Source of the DNA: a phage
Length of the DNA: 64,000 nt
Reading direction: 5' to 3' (one strand)
Sequence record: OZ346228.1
Shown piece after piece: positions 3,010 to 62,897 of the stretch. How positions within the stretch are numbered: position 1 is the stretch's first letter; each line of letters opens with the position of its first letter. Under the pieces are notes generated by a model. The model saw only the letters and a list, made by a program, of their open reading frames with translations, searched no databases and was not told the DNA's origin. The translations under genes and the position numbers were made by a program.

Positions 3010-3200
3010 AAGTAAAGTATCTGGCTGAGGGTATGAGTAGGTATTTCACCCTTGGTGAAGAATATTGGCCATTTACAAGCAACGGCGATGTCTACGTGAA
3101 AGATAATTTCGGCACGCCATGGTTTTTGCACCCTAACGGGTTAGGGTATTCTATTTATCGCAGTGCAATGAGCGACACAACCCTTGCAGAGTTTGTATAG
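3006..3200 (+). CDS. hypothetical protein
   Basis: Start overlaps upstream stop; RBS gaagagga. Confidence 0.5.
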   Translation: MKVKYLAEGMSRYFTLGEEYWPFTSNGDVYVKDNFGTPWFLHPNGLGYSIYRSAMSDTTLAEFV

Positions 3201-3210
3201 AGGAGGTAGA

Positions 3211-3582
3211 ATGTTAGTAAAAGGTACTCACACAGTCAAACAACGTATCGAAGTTGAGATCGATGACTGCGAGCTGAAGCATATTTTACGGTCATGTTCC
3301 AACGTTTTGCTCCTTAGTATTCTCCAGGAGCGAGCGGAGAACGAGTTCTTAAATGCACTGGCAGGCCGCCCTGGTGATTTCTGTGTGCGTAAGCGTGGTG
3401 ACAACAAGTCATGGCTGTGGGAGATAGACGCAGAATGGGATTACCATAAAAATGAGGGTATAGATGAACCTATTCGTGAATTGACGGACAACGAGGTTCA
3501 GATGTACAATGAAGTTTGTCAGTGGGCAAAAAGTCAACAAACTTATCTTGATCCTTGGTGGATGATCGAAAATAGTCGTTGA
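3211..3582 (+). CDS. hypothetical protein
   Basis: RBS gaggaggt before ATG at 3211 (MLVKG...). Confidence 0.55.
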   Translation: MLVKGTHTVKQRIEVEIDDCELKHILRSCSNVLLLSILQERAENEFLNALAGRPGDFCVRKRGDNKSWLWEIDAEWDYHKNEGIDEPIRELTDNEVQMYNEVCQWAKSQQTYLDPWWMIENSR

Positions 3583-3658
3583 CAGGAAGTAAGATTAGAT
3601 ATAAGATGCTTCACACAAACAGAGCGTTGATTGTTTAACACTTAAGGAGACCGCTAAG

Positions 3659-9648: not shown

Positions 9649-9894
9649 ATGAACAAAGGGTGGACATTTGTAGACGGCGTTAAAAACATGCCTCTAGGAA
9701 AGTATATTGTAGCCATGGCAGATGAGAATGGCAAGGTTGATTTCGGAGTTTGCGAGGTTGTTCTTGCAGGATCTGGTGACTATGCTCACAAAACTGGGAT
9801 AATTAACGGTCATTTCTACTTTGATTACAACCCTGTTGTGGCGTATATGGCTATGCCAGAGTTCGAGCTCCCAAAGGAAGGTGCAGATGTTTAA
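9649..9894 (+). CDS. hypothetical protein
   Basis: RBS caggagat. Confidence 0.55.
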   Translation: MNKGWTFVDGVKNMPLGKYIVAMADENGKVDFGVCEVVLAGSGDYAHKTGIINGHFYFDYNPVVAYMAMPEFELPKEGADV

Positions 9895-10084
9895 GCTTAA
9901 ATCTGCATGGAACATCGCTGTGGGGGACGAGATCCGTATCCCAGGTGGAAAGACCATTATGAAAATATCTCGTATCGAGTACGAAGGTGATCGTGTATTT
10001 CATATCTTTGCAGAAGATGGTCGAGAGATTTATATACAGGCAGGATCTCACATCTATATTCGTAAGAAAGGGGAGGACAAATGA
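9888..10084 (+). CDS. hypothetical protein
   Basis: RBS aaggaaggtg before ATG (MFKLKS...). Confidence 0.45.
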
Positions 10085-10410
10085 CAGAGATCATCATTTC
10101 AACTGCAGGGTATGTATTCCTGACAATCATTGCACTGGCTATTTTGGTGACAGTGTATGGGTTTGTTATCCTTCCTATCCTTGAGACATTTAGTTTGTGT
10201 CGGTGTTGGAGAAAAGCTTACGGTCCACAACCATGGAAGGACTGGCCCCACCTGGTGCGCTTAGCGTTCTCTTATGCTTACGATCACTCCAGTAGTGCAT
10301 GCATAACCGGATACCACGCCCACAACTGGAGCTGGGAAGGGTTGAGGAAATGGAATGTTACAAAGACCATACCTCTGCGCATGTACAAACCTAAAAACAA
10401 AGACAACTGA
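10081..10410 (+). CDS. hypothetical membrane protein
   Basis: RBS aaggggagga; hydrophobic segment IIISTAGYVFLTIIALAILVTVYGFVILPIL. Confidence 0.55.
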   Translation: MTEIIISTAGYVFLTIIALAILVTVYGFVILPILETFSLCRCWRKAYGPQPWKDWPHLVRLAFSYAYDHSSSACITGYHAHNWSWEGLRKWNVTKTIPLRMYKPKNKDN

Positions 10411-10990
10411 TACTTGAAAATTCCTGGCATATCAAGTATAAGGGGGATTTCTAAAATGGATTTCCTCCTTTTGATATTTCACCGGGCTGGATATTTTAAA
10501 ATTCTTAGAAAATCAGAAAATGGATCGAAAACTAAAATGGATTTTTCAGAGTAGGCGCGACAAGCTGAATAACTCATCCTATCGTTTGCACCATATTCCA
10601 GGCCACCATTATAGATTTCCCACACATGCTAACCTCTCCCTACTAGAACTTCCTCCACTTACCCTTGACCTTCTATGGTAACAATCTAACCGCTATCTTG
10701 AAGTTGCGGTGCAGCTTTCCAGGTACTCGATCTACTTTTCATTTCAGGGCTTGGATTTTCTGAAAATTTTTCTCGATAAATTTCTCAGTACTCGATCTGT
10801 TTTTCGTTTTCTGAATCGGATTTTCTGGAAATCGTTCCGGCTCTCAACCTGAAATTTTTGGGGACGAAATCGATTTTTCGTTTTCAGAAATGGATTTTTA
10901 AAATTTCTATATGGGAATATTTTAGTGGATACTGTTTTATAGGAAATTGTTACGGAGGGTAATTAGCATGCTAATTAAATTTATTAAATG
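10411..10990. repeat. iteron-like non-coding tract with several short direct repeat families
   Basis: aaaatggattt (about 4 copies), ggattttctg (2), gtactcgatct (2), cgatttttcgttttc (2); no credible ORF. Confidence 0.6.
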
Positions 10991-17683: not shown

Positions 17684-18002
17684 TCAAAAGGGGGCAACAA
17701 GCCCCACCAACCACAAAGAGGATAAAAAATCATGGCTATTATTGCAAAGACCGAGATCGTAGGCTTAGATTCTATTCTCCTCGCATATGAGGAAGCTATA
17801 GAAATGTATGTGGTTTCCTATGGTGAGTATATCCGTGAATATGAATCTATTGATCTAGCTTTTGAATGTTATATTCGCCAGGTTAATAAAGCGTACGATG
17901 ATTATCGTTAAAATAGTTTGACAACAAACAACCATCTAACAAAGCATAATACATAAGGTGGTAGAATGATCCGCCACCCGGAACAAAGAAGAGGTAAACA
18001 CC

Positions 18003-18248
18003 ATGAAAAGCAATAAAGGTTATAACGGTTACAAAAACAAAACTCATTGGAATGTAAGCCTTTGGATTAATAACGATGAGTCATTGTACCGGTTGGCCCA
18101 AGGATTTATTAACGCTAATGCTAATCGTAATGATGCGGCGCGGGATATGATGCTTTTTCTGGAGCTAACCGGACAAGATAAGACCCCGGACGGCTTCAAG
18201 TACAGCACTACGGCGATCCGTGCCGCGATGGTTGGAATGAAACACTAA
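18003..18248 (+). CDS. hypothetical protein
   Basis: RBS aagaggtaaa. Confidence 0.5.
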   Translation: MKSNKGYNGYKNKTHWNVSLWINNDESLYRLAQGFINANANRNDAARDMMLFLELTGQDKTPDGFKYSTTAIRAAMVGMKH

Positions 18249-18399
18249 AAGCACATAGCCGCCAGATCTCAGAATTTACGTACGCTCACCAGTCTATAGC
18301 CTGCTAAGTATTTATTCCAACCATAGAATAACGGAATAGTCAATACCTGCATAAAATAATTATTCGTGTAAACTGCATAACATAAATCGGCTAGGATGT

Positions 18400-19150
18400 C
18401 AACATTTTTCGTAAACAGCTCGAAATTATAACGGTGAGTTATAATAAACAGAGAAATCTTTAGTCGTCTAATGTTTACTGTACATTACTATACTGACTGG
18501 AATCATTAGATGACTAAGAGAAAGATAAGAAATCATTAACAATGCAATTGTTTTATTCGTAACAATAAGGCAACTATGCAAACGGATGGCATGGCGCGAC
18601 GGAGTCGCGACATAATATAAAAGCAGTAACCATCACCCCCGTGATAGTTTGTCTGCAAACTATTAATCAGATCATAGTTGCCTTGTATTTAGTTAATCAT
18701 GACATAACAAGCAAGGCAACTATAGATCTGCTAATAGTTGCCCTGCTTTTATATTATGTCATAGATTATTAGCCTGTTAATTGTTAGTCAGTCAAATCAA
18801 CAACGTTATCATTTCAGTCTTTATTGTTGTTGATCGTTATTGTTATCATGCAAACGAATGGCATGGCTTATCATTTTTGAGTAAACAATCTATACGTGAA
18901 CAGTGAGGCATGCAATAGTAAGGGCGGGAATAATGAGAGTGTAAACTGTCAGGCATGTCAATTATATCAATCGTGTCAGTTATGTCACCATTATGTCAGA
19001 CAAGTTTTTCTCCTCTTTGTCAAGTGCTGCATGAAAAATTTACAATCTTGTATGGTAGCATTTTTGCGGCCCTGTTTACATTCAGTATTGTATGTATAAT
19101 CCTTGTTGTGTGGGCGTTTAGACGTCTAGACGGTCAGAAGTCTGCAGGTT
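18400..19150. repeat. palindrome- and repeat-dense non-coding region between convergent transcription blocks (candidate origin or packaging/regulatory region)
   Basis: 18 bp inverted repeat gacataatataaaagcag / ctgcttttatattatgtc; aaggcaactat / atagttgcctt inverted repeats; direct repeat atgcaaacgRatggcatggc (2 copies); hairpins gcgcgac-gga-gtcgcg and atagtttg-tctgc-aaactat. Confidence 0.55.
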
Positions 19151-20435
19151 AATATCTAATCTATCGGCTGCTAACTATATCCCACACAAATAGTAAGAAA
19201 TATAATTGTTATGTGCGTAAACAGTAACTCATGTTATCAATCCCTGTATGTATCGCCAGTGGTGCGCATAATGGGTATTATGTTAAATTGCCCGTAATGA
19301 TAATGGTTCTCACAATGATAGGTATTCTCATTCCCCCACACAAAATAGATTGCAAATGTTGTGCCACTATGTGAACGGCCTCACCTATTAATTTGCCTCA
19401 CTGCCTCGATATTTGAGAATTATCATAAGAATGAGAAGTATTCCCATTTCGTCCGCCTGGCAGCACTCCAGTCGCTACGGCTCAGAACAGGGCAGAATTG
19501 TGTCCATTCAGATATTTCTGTCTGGCTCTTCAGGTCTGTGTGGGAAAAGTCCACCTCTCTGGCGGGGCATGGGGTCATGACGGGAAAATTGCAGGTCAAT
19601 TAAAAAATTTACGTGGTGTATGAAGCGCTCTTCAGGTAAGGCATGTATTATGGGATGAAACCCTCTTCAGGCAATGATATTTGTGGGTGTGATATTTGCT
19701 GGAAAGCCAGATATGACGGGACTCCCGGCGGGGCAGGGGTAGTACAGACAGGGGAAATATGGAGGATGTGGTTAGGTGAATTGATCAGACAGGTAGAGTA
19801 TGGAATATGTTACAGGTATGTTAAATAGGGCGGCTGAATATCTGTAGGATTTGTGTGTAAAATCAAAGACTTAAGTGGTGTTGTGGTATTTTCTATAAAT
19901 AATTCAAGTTTAATAGGTAATATTTGTCTCTATTCGCTTTGTGTGGTAAACAGATTCAGATGAGATTGGTTTACAAGCGTATACATAATATACAAATTAA
20001 AGATACAAGAAACCCCCCTCCCCCTTCGGCTACCATTCACCTTTTCCTCTGACTGGTACTTAAACACTTATTCAGACTCTTCAGGTTATCACCCATATAT
20101 CATATGGCAGTGACTGGTGTCCTCCGGCCCCTCTTTCGTCACCCGTCCGCTTCGCCATGCTAATGCCATAGCCAATGGTTCGGTTGTTCACCCTGTTCAC
20201 TCAGGTGTATCTCCATACCCCTTCAAAACGAAGAGAACAGAAAACCCGAATTACTCGGTAAAAGAAAAGAGAAGAACTTAATTTTATCAGGATAGGCAAG
20301 AATGTCAAGGCATGACTGCTCACTAAACAAGCAAACAGTCATGTGTGGGAGGTAAGTGATTGTGGTGGTAGGAAATTTAGTTGAAAGATGTGTTATAGGT
20401 GCTTCCAGCACTTTAGCCGGGCAGCTAATTGTGTG

Positions 20436-20651
20436 TCAGTCCAGCGGTTCATCCTCTACTTCACTGAAATCAATGTTCATGGTCTCTTCCCAACCATCGA
20501 TCTCAGCACAAGAGTGGAGTTCTTTAGGGTTTACTCCTAAAGCCTCAGCAACAGAGTCTATATTTAACACCTCTGGCAGGTATGATTCATCAAATTCAAG
20601 GTAAATCAGGCCACGAGTGTTGTCAGCTCCACCAAATATTTCTATCTTCAT
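20436..20651 (-). CDS. hypothetical acidic protein
   Basis: RBS gaggag upstream of ATG; last gene of leftward block. Confidence 0.5.
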   Translation of the reverse strand: MKIEIFGGADNTRGLIYLEFDESYLPEVLNIDSVAEALGVNPKELHSCAEIDGWEETMNIDFSEVEDEPLD

Positions 20652-21345: not shown

Positions 21346-21657
21346 CTATACCCATGAGGGCTTATCAAGGTTGGAGTAGCTGAAAGGTGTCAAAAGGTGA
21401 CTGTCAAAATCTCTCAAACTATCTAAATCTTTTTCCTCGTCCTGACACCATCTGTGCCTACATTTATTGTTGTAGTGCATAGAATGCATAGCGTTCTGCA
21501 ACTTAACAGGTACAAGTGATTCAGGAGTAGATAGTATTGTTGGGTATGCCAGAATCACCTCAAACAGTGGAAACACATCGAAACTAAAGTCTACCTCTGC
21601 AGAGGTTGATGGCATATAGGAGTATTTAGCCGCCTTTGTAGACATAATCCACCTCAC
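21346..21657 (-). CDS. hypothetical protein
   Basis: ORF in compact leftward array. Confidence 0.45.
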   Translation of the reverse strand: MRWIMSTKAAKYSYMPSTSAEVDFSFDVFPLFEVILAYPTILSTPESLVPVKLQNAMHSMHYNNKCRHRWCQDEEKDLDSLRDFDSHLLTPFSYSNLDKPSWV

Positions 21658-23128: not shown

Positions 23129-23416
23129 TCATAGTGCCTCTAAGATTTCATATCCTTCAGGTCGAAATACAAGCCACTCCGTGGCTCCGTTTGGTCGATA
23201 CGCTTTATACAGAACAACCTGATCTCGGCACATGCACATGGCTACATAGTTTTCATCCACACCTGCAGCCTGCATTGCATCTTCTTCTCCGGCAACTGCT
23301 TTGCTTACAACTTCCTTGGTAGGTAGGTGTGCGATCAGCTCGTCACCATCATTAATTCCAAAATGACTGAGTTCTCCATTGGTATCTTTAATCTTAATCT
23401 TAACCAGATCTTTCAT
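23129..23416 (-). CDS. small-protein paralogue array member
   Basis: MKDLVKIKIK... start; adjacent to related ORFs. Confidence 0.5.
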   Translation of the reverse strand: MKDLVKIKIKDTNGELSHFGINDGDELIAHLPTKEVVSKAVAGEEDAMQAAGVDENYVAMCMCRDQVVLYKAYRPNGATEWLVFRPEGYEILEAL

Positions 23417-23745
23417 TAGTCTTTCTCCAGGTTCAAAGGTCCTAAGATTTCATATGCCAGATTAGAAGTTACCAGAGGGTCTTCTGCATCTTTAGTATTG
23501 TACCACCCGTGAATAACCAGAGTCCCACTTTGTTTCATATCCAACTGGAACTGTTCTGCAGTTTCCTCATCCAGCTCCAAGATTTCCATAAGGTATTTGA
23601 TGTTAGGAAGGTATGCAGCTGTTACAGTTCCCTCCACCAAACCTTCGGGCCAACCTACATCCGGATGACAAGTAGGAACCAGGTTGGTCAACTTAATGGT
23701 GTACGCTTTTTCTGCACGAGCCTTCAGTAACGGGTCAATCTTCAT
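23416..23745 (-). CDS. hypothetical protein
   Basis: ORF with ATGA-type overlap to neighbours. Confidence 0.5.
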   Translation of the reverse strand: MKIDPLLKARAEKAYTIKLTNLVPTCHPDVGWPEGLVEGTVTAAYLPNIKYLMEILELDEETAEQFQLDMKQSGTLVIHGWYNTKDAEDPLVTSNLAYEILGPLNLEKD

Positions 23746-24095
23746 TATTCGTCCTCCTCTTCGGTGCCTGCTTCCAGTAATAAGTTAAGAATATCTTCTG
23801 CACAAGGCTCATAGAACTCTTGGCCTTCATTATCGATGATTTTGTAGTCATCTCCACGAATAATCAGGGGATCACTCTCAAAATTATCGAGACCTTTAAC
23901 AACGACAACACGATCGATTGCCATCATTGTAAGAACTTTATCGACATCTTCCTCTGCTACACCATACTGCAGCAGAATGTCTTTGGTAGGAGGAACAGCA
24001 TCCACCACAACGCCGTTACCAAAACCTTCTGGAAGTTTAGCTAAAATATCTTCCGGAACCACATTCACATCAAAACCGGTAATTTCTACTTTCAT
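23745..24095 (-). CDS. small acidic protein (paralogue array member)
   Basis: MKVEITG... start; acidic C-terminus. Confidence 0.5.
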   Translation of the reverse strand: MKVEITGFDVNVVPEDILAKLPEGFGNGVVVDAVPPTKDILLQYGVAEEDVDKVLTMMAIDRVVVVKGLDNFESDPLIIRGDDYKIIDNEGQEFYEPCAEDILNLLLEAGTEEEDE

Positions 24096-24356
24096 TTACA
24101 GCACCTCTTCGTCAACTACTTCATAAAAATGGCCTGGGATTGCAATAGCGTTCTCACCTTCACCTGCAAACACAGTTCCGTCAAGAATCAACATCATAAG
24201 AATTTCTGTAATATCCTCTTCCGGAACGTTGCCAAAACCTTTAATCAGCTCGTAGGTTGGAATATTTACATCTAAGATGTCACCATCTTTAGAACGGAAA
24301 TCAACACCGTCCTGAATCTCTGCCGTTTCAAGGTTTTTCAATTTAATCTTCATCAA
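24096..24356 (-). CDS. small acidic protein (paralogue array member)
   Basis: MMKIKLKNL... start; ...YEVVDEE C-terminus. Confidence 0.5.
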   Translation of the reverse strand: MMKIKLKNLETAEIQDGVDFRSKDGDILDVNIPTYELIKGFGNVPEEDITEILMMLILDGTVFAGEGENAIAIPGHFYEVVDEEVL

Positions 24357-24432
24357 TCGGTCTCCTGTCTTGTTAAGATGAAGGTATTATTTCACACAGG
24401 GTTGGCGTTGTCAACACCTGTGTGCAAGAAAA

Positions 24433-24828
24433 TTACTGAAACAGTGCGGATAAATTACCTTCTGGTGGGAACTTATCTGCCAAAAACGGTGTTAGCACAG
24501 TAGCCTTCTGAAGATCTGGGGTCCACTCGTTGTTCAGAACATCCCAGTAGTACGCAATGTTGCTGTGTGGGTGCCGCATTACGAACTTTTTCCCTTCGTA
24601 GTCGTCTGAAACCTCTACAGAAGAAATAACAACAGAATCTTCAAGGGTTTCTTCATAGAAAGATCCCCCTTCAAATTTCCAACGAGATGCAAGAGCCCCT
24701 GCCTTGAACGCTGCAGATAACGGACTGTCGGCAAGAACATACATTTCTTGCACTCTGTCGCTGCGATCTTTGCTTCTTACGTTGTATACAGTATCTGAGC
24801 TATACTCAACACGGTATAGGCTTACCAT
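24433..24828 (-). CDS. hypothetical protein (paralogue of 26640-27038)
   Basis: Shared HPxS...YW...WTP...ATxL motif pattern with 26640-27038. Confidence 0.55.
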   Translation of the reverse strand: MVSLYRVEYSSDTVYNVRSKDRSDRVQEMYVLADSPLSAAFKAGALASRWKFEGGSFYEETLEDSVVISSVEVSDDYEGKKFVMRHPHSNIAYYWDVLNNEWTPDLQKATVLTPFLADKFPPEGNLSALFQ

Positions 24829-25187
24829 TACCGCACCTCCTCAATAACTTCCACATCTGAACCTACCACAAATGCAAAAGGACAGGTTTCATGAAAGACA
24901 TCTGGATCGCCGCCAAGCTTGCTAACAATCTCTCCACCACTAATAAACACAAGCTCACCGATATTCATCAGATTGCTGAAATAGTACCCATAATGATTAA
25001 AGAATGCAGCAGGGTCAGGTAGACTGGTAGCCTCAAGCACTACATCGGTTGAGGTTACTTTCTTATCATAACCTCTCGCCTTTTGAGATGCAAGATCTGC
25101 AGAATCCTCAGGAGACCGGAGATGCACAGGAATTGTTTCACCAATAAAGCGTACTTTCATATTATCACCCAACAACCATAGCTTCAA
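24828..25187 (-). CDS. small protein (paralogue array member)
   Basis: C-terminus VVGSDVEVIEE resembles other array members. Confidence 0.5.
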   Translation of the reverse strand: MKLWLLGDNMKVRFIGETIPVHLRSPEDSADLASQKARGYDKKVTSTDVVLEATSLPDPAAFFNHYGYYFSNLMNIGELVFISGGEIVSKLGGDPDVFHETCPFAFVVGSDVEVIEEVR

Positions 25188-25428
25188 AAGGAGTCATGAA
25201 CGAATAAACGGCATCATCATCTGCTTCAGGGAATGCTCCCAAAGACTTCATATCTGAACCCTTGACAAATACAAGGTTTTGATCAAAGGCTTCTTGGGGG
25301 TCAATCCGATACATATTTCGTAGAATATCGCTTACCTCCTCATCAAGAGGTGAGTATGCTGTGCACGTTTTTCCGATCAAGCTTTGAGAATCAGGGTATC
25401 CACCTGAAGTTTTAAAATAAACAATCAT
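25165..25428 (-). CDS. small protein (paralogue array member)
   Basis: ORF; C-terminus ...FEAMVVG. Confidence 0.45.
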   Translation of the reverse strand: MIVYFKTSGGYPDSQSLIGKTCTAYSPLDEEVSDILRNMYRIDPQEAFDQNLVFVKGSDMKSLGAFPEADDDAVYSFMTPFEAMVVG

Positions 25429-25519
25429 ATAGTATCACCTCTGGTAAGAGATTGGGATTCCTTTCCCACAAATAATTACAAATCTTCCTTATCGAGGAAG
25501 TATGCTAATCCAAGCAGGA

Positions 25520-25789
25520 TTATTCCTCTACAATCTCATACACATCAGGAGTTACAATCAACTCTTCTCCGTTACCCGGTGCAACAAACACCACCAAACC
25601 TTCAGGTGTGTGCTTTTTAGCCATCTCGATAACATCTTCTCGCAGAGCTGGCTCCATCAGATCAAAACCTTCACCCAGGGCATCACGAACCACCTTCATA
25701 TAGTCAACTGGTTGTGCTTCAACAATCATGCCTTCAACCAGTCCACAGTTTTTGTCTGCCAGCTCAGTTTTGAATAATTTAATTTTCAT
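25520..25789 (-). CDS. small acidic protein (paralogue array member)
   Basis: MKIKLFK... start; ...YEIVEE C-terminus. Confidence 0.5.
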   Translation of the reverse strand: MKIKLFKTELADKNCGLVEGMIVEAQPVDYMKVVRDALGEGFDLMEPALREDVIEMAKKHTPEGLVVFVAPGNGEELIVTPDVYEIVEE

Positions 25790-25926
25790 TTAGAGGTCTC
25801 CTCAATTATTTGATATTAATAGCCGTAACCTAACACATTAACTACAACTGCGATTGCAAACATAATTTCAAAGCATGCAATCTCTACATTTGGGACTAAT
25901 TTCTTAATCACACCCATTGTAGCACC

Positions 25927-26247
25927 TCATTCTCCAAAGTCAATCTTTACTTTGCCTTTCCCCTTACCTTTCTTTCCACCGCATTTAGCCAGCTGACGTG
26001 CTGCAACATCTACCATACGGTCAGTTGCCTCGTAAGCATCACTGCCTTTAGCCTTGGCAATAACTTCTTTTCCAGAATTGTCAAAAATGAACGCCATAAC
26101 TTCCTGGTGATCATTTTCAACTTTTACACTTACACGTGCATAGTTAACAGAGGGATGTAAACGCTCCAGCTTGGACATTTTGCGGGAAATAAAAGATACC
26201 ATACCTTCTGTGATTTCTACATTGTTGCCAGTGATTTCAATTTGCAT
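25927..26247 (-). CDS. hpf: ribosome hibernation promoting factor / RaiA (YfiA) family homologue
   Basis: MQIEITGNNVEITEGM...KLERL...VSVKVE...ARQLAK is colinear with bacterial HPF (MQLNITGNNVEITEAL...KLEQY...VVLKVE...ARQLTK); Lys/Gly-rich C-terminal tail. Confidence 0.8.
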   Translation of the reverse strand: MQIEITGNNVEITEGMVSFISRKMSKLERLHPSVNYARVSVKVENDHQEVMAFIFDNSGKEVIAKAKGSDAYEATDRMVDVAARQLAKCGGKKGKGKGKVKIDFGE

Positions 26248-26331
26248 AACGTGTTCCTTTTAAGGAAGAGGGAATAACTATCTCTCTTTGAAAACAATGA
26301 TACTAAATCTGAAGCGTTGTGTCAACAGTTT

Positions 26332-26622
26332 TTACAGCTTGTTGTCGATAGTTTTTAAAATATCCACAGCAAGATCTGCCATTTTTCGAACATACTCTGC
26401 AAACTCAACAGGATCCTTGATCAAAGAATTCACAGGGTCGTACCCTAGAGCGTTTAAAATGGCTGCAGCATCTACAACCTTCTCATCATTTGCGAAGATC
26501 TCTCCGTCAAACTTGTAGGTCCATTTTGAGTCAACCTTAGCAGAGCAGGGTTTGTCCATGCTTGTTACACCATCGTCTTTAAACTCTCCTGCGTTATCAA
26601 TATTTAGAATTAAATCCATCAT
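26332..26622 (-). CDS. hypothetical protein
   Basis: ORF in compact array. Confidence 0.5.
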   Translation of the reverse strand: MMDLILNIDNAGEFKDDGVTSMDKPCSAKVDSKWTYKFDGEIFANDEKVVDAAAILNALGYDPVNSLIKDPVEFAEYVRKMADLAVDILKTIDNKL

Positions 26623-26639
26623 GGTGACACCTCACTGTT

Positions 26640-27038
26640 TCAGTTTAGCTTTTCTTCAACAACCCCATAACTTGGGGCAGAGTCAAGAGCTTTCTGGTTT
26701 AAAAGTGGCGTAGCAGAATCTGCAAACGGTGTCCAAGTTTTTGTTCTGGAATTCCAGTAATGCTTCACTCTGGAATCTGGATGCACTATAACAAAAACTT
26801 TTTCACTTGTCAACACATTAATTTCTTCTACACCCTTGCTGATAATTTCTCCGTCATAGCCCCCAGTCTGGTATCCTTCGTACCAGGTTCTTGCATAGGC
26901 ATAGCCAGCCTGCCAGCATGCAGCCTCCTCCGAGGTGGAGACTACGTAGAAGTCTTTCTCAAATTCCGGAATACGCCCTTGCTTTACGCTCCAAGCTCCG
27001 CGAATTTTCATTGTTACTTTGAAAAGCTTGTTCTTCAT
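26640..27038 (-). CDS. hypothetical protein (paralogue of 24433-24828)
   Basis: Shared motif pattern with 24433-24828. Confidence 0.55.
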   Translation of the reverse strand: MKNKLFKVTMKIRGAWSVKQGRIPEFEKDFYVVSTSEEAACWQAGYAYARTWYEGYQTGGYDGEIISKGVEEINVLTSEKVFVIVHPDSRVKHYWNSRTKTWTPFADSATPLLNQKALDSAPSYGVVEEKLN

Positions 27039-27039
27039 A

Positions 27040-27294
27040 CTACCGCTCTACAATCTCTACGTCTGTTCCTACACCGAAGGCATAGTAATGTTCTTCCCCA
27101 AAGTAATACTTGGGGACACCCGCTTTGATCAGATCTAACCCGCGAATAAATACCACACCGTGTGATACAGTGGAATGCTTCTGACGCACAGGATCGTTGT
27201 CAGGCAACCATTCAAAGTACACCGCAGGTACAACCTTTCCCTTCAGGAAGGATTGTCCCAAGTAGACGTTAGAATCAAGAATTTTAACCTTCAT
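27040..27294 (-). CDS. small protein, MKVK-family paralogue
   Basis: MKVKILDSNVYLGQSFLKGKVV...GLDLIKAG...DVEIVER; clear paralogue of 27284-27511 and 30934-31167. Confidence 0.6.
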   Translation of the reverse strand: MKVKILDSNVYLGQSFLKGKVVPAVYFEWLPDNDPVRQKHSTVSHGVVFIRGLDLIKAGVPKYYFGEEHYYAFGVGTDVEIVER

Positions 27295-27511
27295 TCTCGT
27301 CCTCCACTATCTCTGCATCCTCACCAAGGGCAAAGTTGTAGGTCCACTGGCTGTCAAAGCAGTCTTGAGATGCACCAGCGGCAATAAGATCTGCACCTTT
27401 TATTTTTAAAAGGTCAGGATAATCTTCGTTAGGGATAGCGGTAAACACTTTCCCCACTAAGGGCTCCTGACCAATATAGAAGCTTGAATCTAAAACTTTA
27501 ACTTTCATCAA
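27284..27511 (-). CDS. small protein, MKVK-family paralogue
   Basis: MMKVKVLDSSFYIGQEPLVGKVF...KGADLIAAGA...AEIVED. Confidence 0.6.
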   Translation of the reverse strand: MMKVKVLDSSFYIGQEPLVGKVFTAIPNEDYPDLLKIKGADLIAAGASQDCFDSQWTYNFALGEDAEIVEDENEG

Positions 27512-27795
27512 CGGTCTCCCTCAGGCGGTTGTGGGACGTAAACACTGTTACGAATATCGTCAGCAGTGTAGTAATAAGTGGTTCCAACCCTATCTCGGGC
27601 TGCAATGTACTCTGCTATACCAACAAGTGCCATTGATTTGGTGGCGTATCTTCCCCACTCGTTAGCTCCCCAGTAGAATTTAGACCAGTAGGGAATAAGA
27701 CCGAACAAATATACCTTTTGACGAACTTCCCAGTAAGTGCCTTTTCCGACAAGTTTAAACTCTACTTCACTACTGTTAATCTTTTTCATTATCAA
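27508..27795 (-). CDS. hypothetical protein
   Basis: ORF in compact array. Confidence 0.5.
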   Translation of the reverse strand: MIMKKINSSEVEFKLVGKGTYWEVRQKVYLFGLIPYWSKFYWGANEWGRYATKSMALVGIAEYIAARDRVGTTYYYTADDIRNSVYVPQPPEGDR

Positions 27796-28088
27796 TCTCC
27801 CTCTACCGTGGTCGGATTGTCAGTAAGAAATTGAGCATTGGCTGGAGGCACGCCTGACATTTTCCACACAACCATAAGTTTATAACCAGGCACTCTATTA
27901 AGTGCAGATCGAGTAGAGTTTGTGCACGTATACTTTCGCTTTCCAAACCCGTTCTCCATCATAATCCAGTACCCAGTATCTTTGTCACCAGGTATCGGTA
28001 GACCACCTTCATCAACCCACTGAATTGACCACGGCACGATGGCTACAGCTTTATATTTAAACTTTTTAAACCACTCAAAAAGTTTCAT
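27792..28088 (-). CDS. hypothetical protein
   Basis: ORF in compact array. Confidence 0.5.
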   Translation of the reverse strand: MKLFEWFKKFKYKAVAIVPWSIQWVDEGGLPIPGDKDTGYWIMMENGFGKRKYTCTNSTRSALNRVPGYKLMVVWKMSGVPPANAQFLTDNPTTVEGD

Positions 28089-28388
28089 AATTCAGCCCCG
28101 CATAGACATAATCACTATAAATAGGCAAACAATGAATCCGAATGCCACGCCACCCATAAACGTTAATATTGATGCAATCATAGTCAATCAGCCTCGCCTG
28201 GCAACTCTTCTACCTTAACATGCCGAAAAGTGTTACCGTAATGGTTGATCCATGACATCAGCTCACTTTCTTGCTCTTCCTCTGGGATGAACTCTCGAAT
28301 ACTGACAAGTTTTAAGAAAACCTAATCACAATCTGCACCCATTCTACCAGACAGACAATAGTGCTTCATAAAAACCCTCCCGCCCGGT

Positions 28389-28583
28389 TTAGAATATTGC
28401 TTCTTCCATTGCGCCTGAGAGCAACAAAGAGGTGATCTGGCTAACATTCATCTCAGACTCTACTTCCTCCCCTTTGAAAGGTTCGCGGCAGAATAGGACT
28501 GTTTCAGGACTTTTACTTCGAACAATATAATACAAATCATTCAATGTGTTGTAGTAATAAGTGTTAAAACGTAAGTTTTTCAT
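28389..28583 (-). CDS. hypothetical protein
   Basis: ORF with ATGA overlap to next. Confidence 0.45.
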   Translation of the reverse strand: MKNLRFNTYYYNTLNDLYYIVRSKSPETVLFCREPFKGEEVESEMNVSQITSLLLSGAMEEAIF

Positions 28584-28867
28584 TTTCTAGTCCTCTTCTT
28601 AGATTTTTGGGGAGAAACGCTTTCTGCAATACGAGACAGACGTTCTTCTGAAGCCTTACCTACTCCAGGTTTTTTGAGTGGATTATCTTTATGACCACAA
28701 TCCAACTGGATATTGGATACCTCTCCAACTTTGTAAGTCAATTCTAGCAAAAGGTTGTCGTCCTTGTCAAATGTTTTTACGATAAATTTTTTATCGTTCT
28801 CCTGAACTTCATATCTGGTACCTGCAGTATACAGCATGGTGCCATCAGCATAGGATATCCAGATCAT
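28580..28867 (-). CDS. hypothetical protein
   Basis: ORF; basic C-terminus. Confidence 0.5.
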   Translation of the reverse strand: MIWISYADGTMLYTAGTRYEVQENDKKFIVKTFDKDDNLLLELTYKVGEVSNIQLDCGHKDNPLKKPGVGKASEERLSRIAESVSPQKSKKRTRK

Positions 28868-29211
28868 TGAGCCTCCTTTTGCTGCAACAGCATTAACTCT
28901 TTGTTAGAGATCTTTACTGCTGTTTTTATTGTTCCATCTTCACGAAACCACGACCAGAACTCTACAGTGTCACCACTATCAAGTAAAGCATGCCCATGGT
29001 AAAAATCTTTGTCCTTAGACAGTTTCTCATCTATATCTGCATCAACACATTCGTGATCCAGAGCATTTTGCCTGAACGCATCGGTTATGCCAATGCACGC
29101 CTTGCTCTCAAGACTGGTATATCCGATATCTTTTAATTCAGTTTCCCAAGTCCAGTACCCTATAAAAGCTAAAACAGCTACCCACAGTAATAACGTTTTA
29201 ATCTTTGGCAT
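28864..29211 (-). CDS. hypothetical secreted/membrane-anchored protein
   Basis: N-terminal signal-like hydrophobic segment LLLWVAVLAFIGYW. Confidence 0.5.
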   Translation of the reverse strand: MPKIKTLLLWVAVLAFIGYWTWETELKDIGYTSLESKACIGITDAFRQNALDHECVDADIDEKLSKDKDFYHGHALLDSGDTVEFWSWFREDGTIKTAVKISNKELMLLQQKEAQ

Positions 29212-29273
29212 TCTCTCTACCTCTTTCTTAGTTTATTTCACTATGGCACATCCTTTGTGCCATATCTCAACTA

Positions 29274-29744
29274 CTACTTAAATAGTAGTTCAAAATAGTG
29301 CAAAATTAACAGAAGTTGAACTACACCTAGTGCAACGGCGAGTATGTTAATCTTAGAATCGAAAAACTTCTTAACTTTTACTCTAAAAGGTTCCTTAATG
29401 TCCTTTACGATCCTATCTATAGATGACCTCATATCTCTGATTACCATCCTGAACATTAAAGACGGATGCTCCCCCATCTCCGTAACGGAATCGAAAACAT
29501 ACTCTCTTCGGTCATAAGGGCCGCCAGCTCTGCGTATTAACCTCTCCACAGAGACCTCGAACGTCACACCTGTAACGTAATCATCTATAACAAGTCGTGA
29601 CGGGTCTTTACCTTTACTATCAAGAGGTATCAAAGTTATCTTTCCAGATTTTGTTAAAATTTCCCCTTTTTCAAGCAAGGTGTACCAATGCTCTCTGCCA
29701 AGACTGTTGAGGCACGTTTTTACATATTTAACAAACATCGTCAC
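29274..29744 (-). CDS. hypothetical protein with C-terminal transmembrane segment
   Basis: C-terminal ILAVALGVVQLLLILHYF. Confidence 0.5.
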   Translation of the reverse strand: MTMFVKYVKTCLNSLGREHWYTLLEKGEILTKSGKITLIPLDSKGKDPSRLVIDDYVTGVTFEVSVERLIRRAGGPYDRREYVFDSVTEMGEHPSLMFRMVIRDMRSSIDRIVKDIKEPFRVKVKKFFDSKINILAVALGVVQLLLILHYFELLFK

Positions 29745-29944
29745 CCCTCATCGCACGTCTGATATAACCACTCTATAAAATCTTGATACCATTCGCCCTC
29801 TGAGCGCTCCGTAGGCCAATAATCTTCACCCTCTCGTGCATTAAAATCTGAGTATTCAACTTTCCACTCCTTTACCAGCTCGTGGAGAAGGTTTTCAGCC
29901 TGCTCTAAAGATTTATTTTTTACCATTGCTGTCTCCTTTTTCAA
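29741..29944 (-). CDS. hypothetical protein
   Basis: ORF overlapping neighbour start. Confidence 0.45.
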   Translation of the reverse strand: MKKETAMVKNKSLEQAENLLHELVKEWKVEYSDFNAREGEDYWPTERSEGEWYQDFIEWLYQTCDEG

Positions 29945-30145
29945 GATAGTTATACATCAGAACTGCACCACCTAAGATGGCTACCAGTAACAATATCCCA
30001 GATAGCATCTCAATAAACATGGCTTGAAACACTGGAAGGTCTCCCTAAATTAACGCACCATTTTAAATACATGCTCTTTTCCCATAAAGGTGCCTGGCTA
30101 AGATCTGCGTAGAACGCAATCTCTTTAAGAACAGTATAGATAGTT

Positions 30146-30373
30146 TTAGGTGCGGTCTCCATCCCTACTCTCCTTCCTGATATTCTTGTAGTAATCAACT
30201 AGGCACATTATTACGATGAAGATAACAACAGGCCAAAAAGGTGCAGCAGTGATGATGGTGATAAAATCATCAAACTTCACCCTTCGTCTGGACACGATGC
30301 ATACACCTGTCAAGAATACCGCTGTTATAACGGACATTACCAGGTAACCTATTAGCACAACATTTATACTCAT
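30146..30373 (-). CDS. hypothetical small membrane protein
   Basis: Two hydrophobic segments. Confidence 0.45.
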   Translation of the reverse strand: MSINVVLIGYLVMSVITAVFLTGVCIVSRRRVKFDDFITIITAAPFWPVVIFIVIMCLVDYYKNIRKESRDGDRT

Positions 30374-30403
30374 TGGTCCTCCCTTTGTAGGTTAAATTGT
30401 ATA

Positions 30404-30937
30404 CTACAAATGGTCGCTGAGGGTGTCAAGAAAATTATCCCGTTCTTTCTCAGAGTTTTCATGTGTGTAGCTGAAAAACATATCGAGAATAACCTTATTG
30501 ATATATTCCAGCTCCTCTGTGTTCAGATGCTTAGCAGGATCTACAATGACATCCCAAATATCATACAGACCGCACTCATGATACCCATAACGCCACTCAA
30601 TTGTCAAGCTGAGCGGCAAATCTTTACCTTCACAAACAACCTTCCATCTACATATGTTGGTATCTGGTCGTACCTGTGCACGGTACACCTGCACAAAATC
30701 CAATTTGAATTTGAGGTACTCGTCATACAATTTAAGCACAAAGCTCTCGATTTGTGGAGACACTTTTGCAGCAAACTGTGCGTATTCGTACTTGCACTGG
30801 ATGATCTTTCTGCGTTTTGCAGTTAAATTTTTTGCCGCCAGTTGTTCTTCAGTGTATCTCCACCTACGATCAACAAACGCAACAGGGTCTTTGTCCCCAT
30901 AGAGGTCTTCCCAGTTAATCAGAAGCATACCTGTCAC
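30404..30937 (-). CDS. hypothetical protein
   Basis: 177 aa ORF; ATGA overlap with upstream gene. Confidence 0.55.
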   Translation of the reverse strand: MTGMLLINWEDLYGDKDPVAFVDRRWRYTEEQLAAKNLTAKRRKIIQCKYEYAQFAAKVSPQIESFVLKLYDEYLKFKLDFVQVYRAQVRPDTNICRWKVVCEGKDLPLSLTIEWRYGYHECGLYDIWDVIVDPAKHLNTEELEYINKVILDMFFSYTHENSEKERDNFLDTLSDHL

Positions 30938-31167
30938 TCCTCCACAACTTCAAGGCCTTTACCGCCTCGCTCTGGCAGATTACTTAAAGATAGGTAATAC
31001 ATATAATCAGGAGAGATCCTGCCAGACTCTGCACCTGCAGCTAGTAAATCCTTCCCTTTAACCAGGACAACATTCTCGTTTGCAGATAGCCGTTTTGCTT
31101 CCACAATTTTACCAACACAGTCAACCAAGGAAGGGTACCCTAAATCTGTAAGAAATTTAACTTTCAT
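30934..31167 (-). CDS. small protein, MKVK-family paralogue
   Basis: MKVKFLTDLGYPSLVDCVGKIVEA...KGKDLLAAGA...LEVVEE. Confidence 0.6.
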   Translation of the reverse strand: MKVKFLTDLGYPSLVDCVGKIVEAKRLSANENVVLVKGKDLLAAGAESGRISPDYMYYLSLSNLPERGGKGLEVVEE

Positions 31168-31874: not shown

Positions 31875-32189
31875 CTACCAGGTTACTGTCAAGTAGGCAA
31901 CCGTATTATTTTTCTCTGGGGAGATGCCAACAACATCTACCTGCAGACCTCCTGCCCTTAAATCTCCAACAATGTGCGGGAAGTAATCTGAGAGATGCGA
32001 GGGTAGATTTATCGAAAATCCGCACCCCAGAAAGCCTGCTAACGCTTTATTTTGTATCTCCCCTACAATCGCATCATAAATGGAGTTAAGCTCGTCAGGG
32101 AGCGTTACAGGACGTTTTAGCGCTAACTGGTGTAATTTGTCCTTAGCACTCATTTTCATTTCAGGTCTACCTCTGGTGGTGCCAACCAC
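31875..32189 (-). CDS. hypothetical protein
   Basis: ORF. Confidence 0.45.
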   Translation of the reverse strand: MVGTTRGRPEMKMSAKDKLHQLALKRPVTLPDELNSIYDAIVGEIQNKALAGFLGCGFSINLPSHLSDYFPHIVGDLRAGGLQVDVVGISPEKNNTVAYLTVTW

Positions 32190-32689
32190 ATAAATGGCGG
32201 CAAGCCTAAACGGTTTTTCTTATCCCACACAAAATATGCATATGCTTGCCCGTCAGTTCTGCCATTTGATTGAAAAGATGGACGCTTAGATATTGTGATC
32301 ACAGTGGTAGGTGCATTATCAAGCCACCATTCAAATCTGGCTTTGCTTTCCAGAAAATTAAGACGCAAAAGCATAATAACTACGTCAGCATCTTTCAACG
32401 CCTTGTCTACAAACTCACGAGCCAAACTGTATGGTGGGTTGGTGATAATACAGTCAACATGGTTGTATTCTGTATTCAGATAGTCAACACCTTCTTGGAT
32501 TTCTCCCCATGCAGATCCTAACGGCATACGGGAGTAGAACACACCTGAGGCACTATTCCTGCAAGGCTCTAAGTAGGTCCAGTCTTCTGGGAACGGAATA
32601 AGGTCATACAGCCCTTCTGCACACCACTCCGGTGTCACATACTCATCGTAGGCGTTACGTTGTTCATCAGGTTTTCGAGCACAAGTCAT
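32156..32689 (-). CDS. putative DNA N6-adenine methyltransferase (small, DPPY-type)
   Basis: Catalytic motif IV CIITNPPYS. Confidence 0.6.
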   Translation of the reverse strand: MTCARKPDEQRNAYDEYVTPEWCAEGLYDLIPFPEDWTYLEPCRNSASGVFYSRMPLGSAWGEIQEGVDYLNTEYNHVDCIITNPPYSLAREFVDKALKDADVVIMLLRLNFLESKARFEWWLDNAPTTVITISKRPSFQSNGRTDGQAYAYFVWDKKNRLGLPPFMWLAPPEVDLK

Positions 32690-62084: not shown

Positions 62085-62159
62085 GCCCTGTTAGCTTAGT
62101 GGATAAAGCAGCGGCCTTCTAAGCCGTTGACACTGGTTCGAGTCCAGTACGGGGTGCCA
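62085..62159 (+). tRNA. tRNA-Arg (anticodon TCT)
   Basis: Manual fold: D stem GCTT/AAGC, anticodon loop CTTCTAA, T loop TTCGAGT, 3' CCA encoded; acceptor stem has two G-U pairs. Confidence 0.7.
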
Positions 62160-62163
62160 AATT

Positions 62164-62250
62164 GGGGAGTTATCCCGTAGAGGTAGCGGTGTAGACTGTA
62201 AATCTATTGTCATTGCGACTCGGGTGGTTCGACTCCACCACTCCCCACCA
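62164..62250 (+). tRNA. tRNA-Tyr (anticodon GTA), long variable arm
   Basis: Acceptor GGGGAGT/ACTCCCC, anticodon loop CTGTAAA, T loop TTCGACT, CCA encoded. Confidence 0.8.
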
Positions 62251-62364
62251 AATTTATATTTTTAGATGCATAAATAATACAGATAATGGCATTGATATTT
62301 ATCGTCGTTTATACTAGTCACTAACTGCTCGAAAATCAGTGTCATTATCAGTATTATTTATAAA

Positions 62365-62455
62365 GGAGGGTAGGGAGCAATGGTGCTCAATCGGTCTTGA
62401 AAACCGTCCCGTTGAGGATGACTCGATGATGGTTCGATTCCATTACTCTCCGCCA
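62365..62455 (+). tRNA. tRNA-Ser (anticodon TGA), long variable arm
   Basis: Acceptor GGAGGGT/ACTCTCC, anticodon loop CTTGAAA, T loop TTCGATT, CCA encoded. Confidence 0.7.
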
Positions 62456-62553
62456 CATTGTTGACCTTGTAATTAAGCGAAAGTCGGAAGCAGAACCGGA
62501 TTATCAAATGTTACAGTCGTCATCGCCGACTAGCAACATGGTCAACATACTGA

Positions 62554-62652
62554 GCTAGGTAAGCCCTTTGGCAAGGGCGAGGATTTTTAATCCTGAAAAT
62601 AGACGAGGTAGTCGTTGAATACATAGGTGGTTCGATTCCATCACCTAGCACC
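62554..62652 (+). tRNA. atypical tRNA-like gene; anticodon loop TTTTTAA (Lys-TTT-like), about 28 nt extra between anticodon and T arms; may be a pseudo-tRNA
   Basis: Acceptor GCTAGGT/ACCTAGC, D arm GCCC-TTTGGCAA-GGGC, T loop TTCGATT; variable region far longer than class I; CCA not fully encoded. Confidence 0.35.
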
Positions 62653-62657
62653 TTTTT

Positions 62658-62733
62658 GCTGATGTAGCACAATCGGTAGTGCAATTGATTTGTAATCAAT
62701 AGGTTGTAGGTTCAAGTCCTGCCATCAGCACCA
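62658..62733 (+). tRNA. tRNA-Thr (anticodon TGT)
   Basis: Acceptor GCTGATG/CATCAGC, anticodon stem-loop ATTGA-TTTGTAA-TCAAT, T loop TTCAAGT, CCA encoded. Confidence 0.8.
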
Positions 62734-62734
62734 A

Positions 62735-62809
62735 GGCCCTGTAGCTGGAAGGTTCAAGCAAGCGACTCATAATCGCCAGACGGTGGTTCAATTCCACCCA
62801 GGGCCACCA
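62735..62809 (+). tRNA. tRNA-Met/Ile2-type (anticodon CAT)
   Basis: Acceptor GGCCCTG/CAGGGCC, anticodon loop CTCATAA, T loop TTCAATT, CCA encoded. Confidence 0.8.
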
Positions 62810-62820
62810 AATAGTAAATA

Positions 62821-62897
62821 CTCCGCGTAGCTCAGCTTGGTAGAGCGCCTGATTTGGGATCAGGAGGTCGAGTGTTCGAATCACTCCGTGGAGACCA
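62821..62897 (+). tRNA. tRNA-Pro (anticodon TGG)
   Basis: C1-G72 acceptor, D stem GCTC/GAGC, anticodon stem-loop CCTGA-TTTGGGA-TCAGG, T loop TTCGAAT, CCA encoded. Confidence 0.8.

Follow-up and report, generated by a model that had tools for sequence, protein, structure and literature searches.

Twelve small genes of three families, here called A, B and C, are clustered at positions 23129-31167 (minus strand) of a phage DNA (sequence record OZ346228.1; the window is the whole stretch of 64,000 nucleotides that was analysed). Three of them, A25165, A24828 and B24433 (genes are given by family letter and lowest coordinate), form an A-A-B cassette. Transposon insertions in the orthologues of this cassette in phage Bas54 are tolerated on Escherichia coli K-12 and lost on the uropathogenic isolate CFE311. 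We consider it somewhat probable that the twelve products are accessory proteins that interact with the host, the A-A-B cassette being a strain-specific module for host range or counter-defence. By megablast, more than 100 rV5-like E. coli phages (Vequintavirus) match the entire 23129-31167 region with 97-99.4% identity, the best match being phage nomo (99.4%). It carries ∼28 genes on the minus strand, 12 of which were assigned to the three families. In annotated relatives, a ribosome hibernation factor, one virion protein and a "putative glycosidase" are the only products of the region that carry a name other than "hypothetical protein". Small early accessory gene arrays are a familiar trait of large virulent phages. 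The rV5-like phages have a broad host range, which makes them candidates for therapy of infections with pathogenic E. coli; the majority of their genes are without an assigned function.

The twelve genes, in the direction of transcription, are:

30934-31167, minus strand: A30934, 77 aa, the copy that lies apart from the rest; phrog_5009, E-value (E) 8e-36; orthologues bas54_0166 and rV5 gp122.
27284-27508, minus strand: A27284, 74 aa, isoelectric point (pI) 4.05; phrog_5009, E 6e-37; orthologue bas54_0159.
27040-27294, minus strand: A27040, 84 aa, strands 2 and 3 separated by a short insert; phrog_5009, E 4e-27; orthologue bas54_0158.
26640-27038, minus strand: B26640, 132 aa; phrog_7379, E 8e-74; orthologue bas54_0157.
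25520-25789, minus strand: C25520, 89 aa, pI 4.4; assigned by leave-one-out hidden Markov model (HMM); orthologue bas54_0153.
25165-25428, minus strand: A25165, 87 aa, divergent, with a helical insert; assigned by HMMs; orthologue bas54_0152; first gene of the A-A-B cassette.
24828-25160, minus strand: A24828, 110 aa, divergent, with an N-terminal insertion and a 27040-like C-terminal half; assigned by HMMs; orthologue bas54_0151.
24433-24828, minus strand: B24433, 131 aa; phrog_7379, E 2e-66; orthologue bas54_0150; last gene of the A-A-B cassette.
24096-24353, minus strand: C24096, 85 aa, pI 4.06; z=7.2 against 23745 and leave-one-out rank 1; orthologue bas54_0149.
23745-24095, minus strand: C23745, 116 aa, net charge -21, with an acidic C-terminal tail; leave-one-out HMM; orthologue bas54_0148.
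23416-23745, minus strand: C23416, 109 aa, the weakest member; leave-one-out rank 1 of 919; orthologue bas54_0147.
23129-23416, minus strand: C23129, 95 aa; leave-one-out HMM; orthologue bas54_0146.

Other genes intervene between A30934 and A27284, and between B26640 and C25520 stand the open reading frame (ORF) 26332-26622, the hibernation factor (HPF) gene and a 33-aa ORF. The A-A-B order is thus present twice in the array, once upstream and once downstream of HPF.

To sort the array, 32 minus-strand ORFs were translated and all 496 pairs were compared by Smith-Waterman alignment against 300 composition-preserving shuffles per pair, and HMM searches of the window were run against its 919 stop-to-stop ORFs. 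BLASTP all-versus-all alone resolved three groups. A preliminary description of the region, made from the letters alone, had named several of these ORFs. All of them exist on the minus strand, and three are probably slightly shorter at the start, as judged from PHROG alignments and GenBank annotations: 24828-25160 (not -25187), 24096-24353 (not -24356) and 27284-27508 (not -27511). The description held 27040, 27284 and 30934 to be clear paralogues, and this was borne out: 27284 and 27040 scored z=24.9 (p 8e-15 against the shuffles; 41% identity), and A30934 scored z=12.8 with 27284, 8.7 with 27040 and 6.6 with 25165. The pairing of 24433-24828 with 26640-27038 also held (z=16.1, p 6e-10; 28% identity over 119 aa). 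Several neighbours that share the MK[IV]K start and the E[IV]VEE end had been regarded as relatives of the trio, and here the outcome was divided: 24828 and 25165 join family A, whereas 23745, 24096 and 25520 belong to the separate family C.

The inclusion of the two divergent A proteins is supported from several sides. In the shuffle tests 24828 scored z=7.6 with 27284 and 7.1 with 27040. An HMM built from orthologues of the core trio only picked out 24828 (E 9e-6) and 25165 (E 5.5e-5) among the 919 ORFs, and the reciprocal HMMs from 24828 and 25165 matched core members (27040 at 7e-5 from the 24828 side). A profile of 37 diverse A relatives, from which the 25165 and 24828 types had been left out, recovered 25165 at E 6e-9, 24828 at E 7e-6 and 30934 at E 3e-23. 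For family C, the pairs 24096/23745 and 23745/23129 scored z=7.2 and 6.7, and 23745, 24096 and 25520 aligned convincingly with 23129 and 23416. When each C protein was left out in turn, it was always the best non-training ORF of the 919, with E-values of 0.034 (24096), 1.5e-4 (23745), 1.5e-5 (23129), 0.036 (23416) and 5e-4 (25520).

The similarities therefore either exceed those of composition-matched shuffles, with z-scores far above them, or are recovered by leave-one-out HMMs; they are not the chance resemblances of composition-matched small proteins that the preliminary description had allowed for. What did not survive is the idea of one expanded family. The comparisons indicate three: A with five copies, C with five and B with two. 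A single superfamily of A and C was considered and rejected, since profile-profile comparison with hhalign gave a probability of just 7%, A profiles did not recover C proteins (E 0.8-9), and C profiles did not recover A proteins. A blastp match of 24096 to the N6-adenine methyltransferase at 32156-32689 (p 1.7e-5 against shuffles) covered 49 aa, had no profile support and was treated as chance.

Part of this grouping exists in PHROGs. The A core (phrog_5009) and family B (phrog_7379) find end-to-end matches there, both labelled "unknown function": phrog_5009 is matched over its full length by 30934, 27284 and 27040, and 24433 and 26640 each cover 131/131 positions of phrog_7379. In contrast, 25165 matches phrog_5009 weakly (1.2e-4) and falls essentially in phrog_13920, 24828 does not match it and is placed in phrog_13661 instead, and each of the five C genes falls in a different PHROG. 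The core paralogy is therefore already implicit in that database; it does not show how far A and C extend, nor that the A-A-B order is repeated. Searches with Pfam, NCBIfam and PDB sequence profiles gave no match for any A, B or C protein. Literature searches on early genes of rV5 and Vequintavirus, on the hibernation factor and on anti-defence gave nothing on the array genes besides the transposon preprint discussed below. What this analysis adds is the complete set of family assignments, the predicted fold, the observation that unrelated phages also carry A in several copies, the recurrence of A-A-B, and a connection to conditional-essentiality data that their authors did not discuss.

The amplification is local, as the preliminary description had proposed. 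An HMM scan of 1,826 ORFs of the complete genome of Bas54 (phage MaxBurger, MZ501093; 136,346 bp) returned five A, five C and two B genes and no others; all 12 lie between 98.0 and 104.2 kb, a span of 6.2 kb. All twelve genes were found in nearly all of ∼120 sequenced relatives. Families B and C were seen in Vequintavirus-like contigs only, and the homologue search with family B returned Vequintavirus proteins only. Family A is scattered more widely. A HMMER search of 1.84 billion representatives gave 39 family A proteins at E≤1e-3, typically of 63-87 aa, a few of them with two or three repeats, and their consensus reads MKVKLLNDGGY-G...GKVVEA...I-G-ELI-AGA...F...Y-F-G-E-EVIEE. Multi-copy family A was found in three unrelated phage lineages: a 44-kb IMG/VR contig with 4-5 copies flanking the DNA polymerase gene (the fifth is marginal, E 0.014-0.026), a 48-kb contig in which three copies lie between the primase gene and the lysis genes, and Proteus phage RS51pmB with two copies. 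In temperate phages of the mEp021/mEp554 type, A is single-copy and lies between Q and the lysis genes, and an A homologue of an mEp021-type prophage is present in 23 of 5,426 complete E. coli genomes.

To learn what kind of proteins these are, structures were modelled with AlphaFold2 (AF2). The family A model (13-sequence alignment) had a predicted local distance difference test score (pLDDT) of 95.2 and a predicted template modelling score (pTM) of 0.82. It predicts a five-stranded small barrel of ∼70 aa, probably SH3-like, with two short helices, in which the N-terminal "MKVK" strand is paired with the C-terminal "EVVEE" strand; this pairing accounts for the motif by which the genes had first been noticed. 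The best PDB matches of the model are small barrels of the SH3-like/KOW/PhnA-C kind, namely SH3 domains, OapB, the PhnA-like C-terminal domain and the Spt5 KOW domain. The curated SH3, SH3b and KOW models of Pfam matched no A or C member at E≤1. Foldseek against the viral models of BFVD returned uncharacterised phage proteins only, the second match being the CM1 orthologue of 25165. Short phage proteins with the predicted A fold include RB49 Q76ZG7, Merlin A0A0K1LND4, Sf20 A0A2K9VNT9 and A0A514CYF5/CYE9/CYG1 (template modelling (TM) scores of 0.6-0.86). These proteins have no assigned function, and most of the E-values are marginal (1e-4 to 0.1). The adjacent accessions of A0A514CYE9, CYF5 and CYG1 hint at a shared genome.

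The AF2 model of C25520 (pLDDT 91.8) has five strands in the same order as the A model; three helices are inserted between strands 2 and 3, where 25165 has its own insert. The two models also share several weak BFVD matches, e.g., A0A514CYF5 (TM 0.52/0.63, E 0.63). A similar general architecture of A and C is suggested by the models, with homology between them unproven. Compact and confident folds were thus obtained for both families from shallow alignments, and twelve "hypothetical" genes are now placed in three families, two of which (A and C) have a confidently predicted fold.

Most of the array proteins are acidic. Family C has a pI of 4.05-4.7 and a net charge of -7 to -21, and family A, with a pI of 4.05-6.8, is not uniformly acidic. 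The A and C models showed no similarity in fold or sequence to known DNA mimics of the Ocr/ArdA/Arn type. The invariant residues are Gly, Tyr and Leu, and neither a conserved catalytic constellation nor a hydrophobic segment was found in the array proteins, which suggests that the A, B and C proteins are most likely stoichiometric binders of host macromolecules.

The array had also been described as diversifying. We calculated the ratio of non-synonymous to synonymous polymorphism (pN/pS), a dN/dS-type measure, across 8 Vequintavirus genomes, and found purifying selection: pN/pS was 0.03-0.17 for 10 of the 11 measured members (A27040 was not measurable), with 0.03 for both A25165 and B24433 and 0.43 for the exception, C24096. 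Positive selection was rejected, as every measured member lies well below 1. Gene content varies instead, through deletions, fusions and mosaics. The copies are old paralogues, each under constraint of its own. In HMM comparisons 24828 is closest to 27040, and 25165 is closest to 30934 and 27284. Since 27284 and 27040 are far nearer to each other than to their positional counterparts in the second A-A-B unit, a segmental duplication of A-A-B would need gene conversion, or else independent duplications.

The variation in gene content takes several forms. In phage Bas59 (EduardKellenberger), positions 3135-3602 correspond to ∼26.7-30.9 kb of the window and carry a natural deletion, by which the "putative glycosidase" (orthologue of 30404-30937) has become joined to the final 33 codons of B26640. 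A27040, A27284 and ∼12 other small genes are taken out, and the A25165-A24828-B24433 cassette is kept. Bas54 (9885-10439 of the locus) is without the block 27792-29744, so that ∼7 genes are missing from the interval bounded by the orthologues of 27508 and 29741; one of them is the orthologue of the rV5 "virion structural protein" gp128 (29274-29744). In rV5 (NC_011041, 8226-8496) the C23129 orthologue is split into the overlapping ORFs gp148 and gp149, with 2 gaps by blastn; the split is due either to a sequencing error or to a frameshift, which would probably have inactivated the copy. A 70-aa in-frame fusion of 27284 and 27040 is present in some phages. In two independent ENA metagenome contigs (positions 210-428 in each), whose context is that of a Vequintavirus, a family A gene is a mosaic; the gene upstream of it is unrelated. 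The 5′ 130 nt of the mosaic are 90-100% identical to the temperate mEp554/mEp021 allele, the 3′ 100 nt are 86-96% identical to 27284, and the junction falls at the conserved DLIAAGA motif. The two gene pools therefore meet inside cells, and family A genes appear to act as recombination joints.

The evidence on function comes from HIDEN-SEQ, a saturated transposon library of Bas54 (bioRxiv 10.1101/2025.11.20.689424), whose proteins in this region are 97-100% identical to those of the window. On K-12, bas54_0146 to 0164 were classed as "non-essential" (Data S2 of that preprint), but 0151, 0152 and 0153 as "intermediate". On CFE311, insertions in bas54_0150, 0151 and 0152 (B24433, A24828 and A25165) dropped to zero reads, with log2 fold changes of -6.77, -6.17 and -7.16 (all q∼0), and those in bas54_0157 (B26640) fell 4-fold (log2 fold change -2.14, q∼0). 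There was no change for bas54_0146-0149, 0154, HPF, 0156, 0158 and 0159, and insertions in HPF were neutral on both hosts. The authors of the preprint argued that polar effects were not widespread, and the neutral insertions in bas54_0154, 0155, 0158 and 0159 agree with their view. Its main text is silent on the array genes; the follow-up concerned bas54_0063 and bas54_0140, against the systems DS-28 and Gao_Tmn.

The gene bas54_0140 offers a comparison from close by. This gene, 1.5 kb downstream of the array, is part of the same leftward accessory block and behaves alike in the transposon data, being dispensable on K-12 and depleted on CFE311; the 99-aa ORF at 21346-21645 (minus strand) of the window is identical to it at 99/99 positions. 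The preprint validated it by knockout as needed against DS-28, a predicted defence system of CFE311 (bioRxiv 10.1101/2025.11.20.689424). It differs from the array in having no sequence similarity to A, B or C, and in that a knockout and a cognate defence were demonstrated, whereas the evidence on the A-A-B cassette comes from transposon sequencing. Other small counter-defence proteins found by conditional essentiality are T4 Dmd and RIIA/B.

From these data the following scheme can be proposed. The array would belong to an extended leftward block of accessory genes in an rV5-like Vequintavirus, a block presumably expressed early, in which local duplication would have given rise to three phage-specific families of small cytoplasmic proteins that bind host macromolecules stoichiometrically. 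Being dispensable on K-12, the array would be required on the uropathogenic isolate through A25165-A24828-B24433 and, less so, B26640. The most likely function would then be to neutralise a strain-specific host barrier, by counter-defence or in setting the host range, with the paralogues covering different targets or hosts. The A and B proteins probably cooperate, because the A-A-B order occurs twice. The anonymous cluster thereby becomes a testable candidate: phage Bas54, genes bas54_0150-0152 and 0157, host CFE311. If the proposal were true, the known counter-defence proteins would gain a further family, and a host barrier not described before would probably come to light too.

A number of points weigh against this assignment. 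The conditional essentiality is one experiment in the supplement of a preprint, not discussed by its authors and without single-gene knockouts or complementation, and the two CFE311 systems that they tested were matched to other genes. Polarity inside a possible 0152-0151-0150 operon may have contributed to the depletion, and therefore only B24433 is unambiguously implicated. The upstream gene bas54_0153 was partly depleted on CFE311 as well (-2.78, not significant). Nine of the 12 members, those outside the cassette, are counted as phenotype-free in the comparison of K-12 with the isolate. In supplementary file 9 (Data S6/S7), the sheet "resampling_K-12_vs_CFE303" names a "311" sample in its console line and repeats, number for number, the sheet that follows it; the CFE303 comparison thus appears to be missing from the deposited file, and the comparison therefore covers one clinical host. 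None of the characterised anti-defence proteins was found to resemble the array proteins in sequence, or significantly in structure; a requirement in one strain could stem from physiology or receptor-related differences and not from immunity, and the early timing is based on predicted promoters. The suggestion of the preliminary description, that the locus serves anti-defence or host takeover, thus gained indirect support for one cassette (25165, 24828 and 24433) and none for the other nine genes.

A bolder version, which we regard as tentative and clearly less probable than the proposal itself, is that family A and its Vequintavirus-specific partner B represent a new, widely scattered class of SH3-like-barrel counter-defence proteins, kept in tandem-duplicated arrays with one immune target per paralogue. 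The A-A-B cassette would then be a three-protein inhibitor of the CFE311 barrier, and A genes would shuttle alleles between virulent and temperate phages. Alternatively, the products could be general host-takeover factors that modulate conserved machinery (RNA polymerase, ribosome, nucleoid or proteases), the need on CFE311 reflecting strain physiology. A single predicted σ70 operon shared with the hibernation factor, ClpP-like and PhoH-like genes nearby, a fold of the SH3/KOW kind that is frequent among nucleic-acid and peptide binders, and the "intermediate" class of 0151-0153 on K-12 are all consistent with such a role. If the targets were conserved, however, a loss should also be felt on K-12, which tolerates the insertions; moreover, depletion on CFE311 was all-or-none, and HPF itself has no phenotype. 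On balance we find this alternative unlikely.

The prophage-borne A homologues and the natural mosaic of prophage and rV5-type alleles would also fit a part in competition between phages, in which the proteins neutralise superinfection-exclusion or abortive-infection genes of prophages, or exclude rival phages. Recombination is evidence of co-occurrence only, not of antagonism, direct evidence for such a part was not found, and the idea is largely a sub-case of counter-defence; we rate it as improbable. That the genes are evolutionary debris, functionless duplicated ORFans whose similarities and phenotypes are artefacts of composition or of polarity on one real gene, is the least probable reading by far. 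The natural deletions and the split copy (Bas59 without A27040 and A27284; C23129 in rV5) and the lack of a transposon phenotype for most members could be cited for it. It is largely refuted by the shuffle tests and the pN/pS values, which point to similarity far above composition and to strong purifying selection on the orthologues, and the presence of 12/12 genes in nearly all relatives, the confident AF2 folds and the conservation of A across unrelated phages also argue against it. A strain-specific host-range or counter-defence module remains our preferred reading of the A-A-B cassette.

The surroundings of the array were examined as well. All genes from ∼21 kb to ∼58 kb of the window lie on the minus strand, and the sign of the GC skew switches accordingly. 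In a consensus scan, 14 of the 15 best σ70-like sites are predicted on the coding strand, and two predicted promoters, upstream of HPF and upstream of 24096, match promoters annotated in the rV5 record NC_011041. The relevant features are:

25927-26247, minus strand: HPF/RaiA-like short ribosome hibernation factor; PF02482, E 4e-15.
26297-26325, minus strand: predicted σ70 promoter upstream of HPF, TTGACA-17-TATCAT; consensus scan 11/12; rV5 "P144" (NC_011041).
24386-24414, minus strand: predicted σ70 promoter preceding the four tandem C genes, TTGACA-17-AATAAT with TG; rV5 "P150".

From these predictions HPF, C25520, A25165, A24828 and B24433 would form one transcription unit, and the leftward accessory block is presumably transcribed early. 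HPF scored 56.7 bits with PF02482, against a gathering cut-off of 23.7, and no family A, B or C protein matched this model; HPF is a neighbour in the same predicted operon, outside the three families. The 96-aa ORF at 26332-26622 (minus strand), between HPF and B26640, is acidic and also outside all three families. It is the least constrained gene of the region (pN/pS 0.52, mean amino acid identity 92% in the 8 genomes).

Further observations concern other parts of the window. Between divergently transcribed blocks, ∼17900-20450 is a region of ∼2.5 kb without long ORFs and with the lowest GC content (0.39), with iterated ATAGTTGCC-type direct and inverted repeats around 18545-18760; its counterpart in Bas54 tolerates zero transposon insertions, and a role as an origin or as a hub of regulation is possible. 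Seven tRNA genes are clustered at 62085-62897 (plus strand). For the one at 62554-62652 ARAGORN gave a four-base anticodon and assigned no amino acid; the Bas54 record has a tRNA-Lys annotated at roughly the corresponding place of its own tRNA cluster. Finally, E. coli rV5-like phages share 95-100% identity over 23129-31167 with 18 GenBank entries whose name is "Campylobacter phage" (MG0656xx), which suggests that these records are mislabelled or derive from a contaminant.

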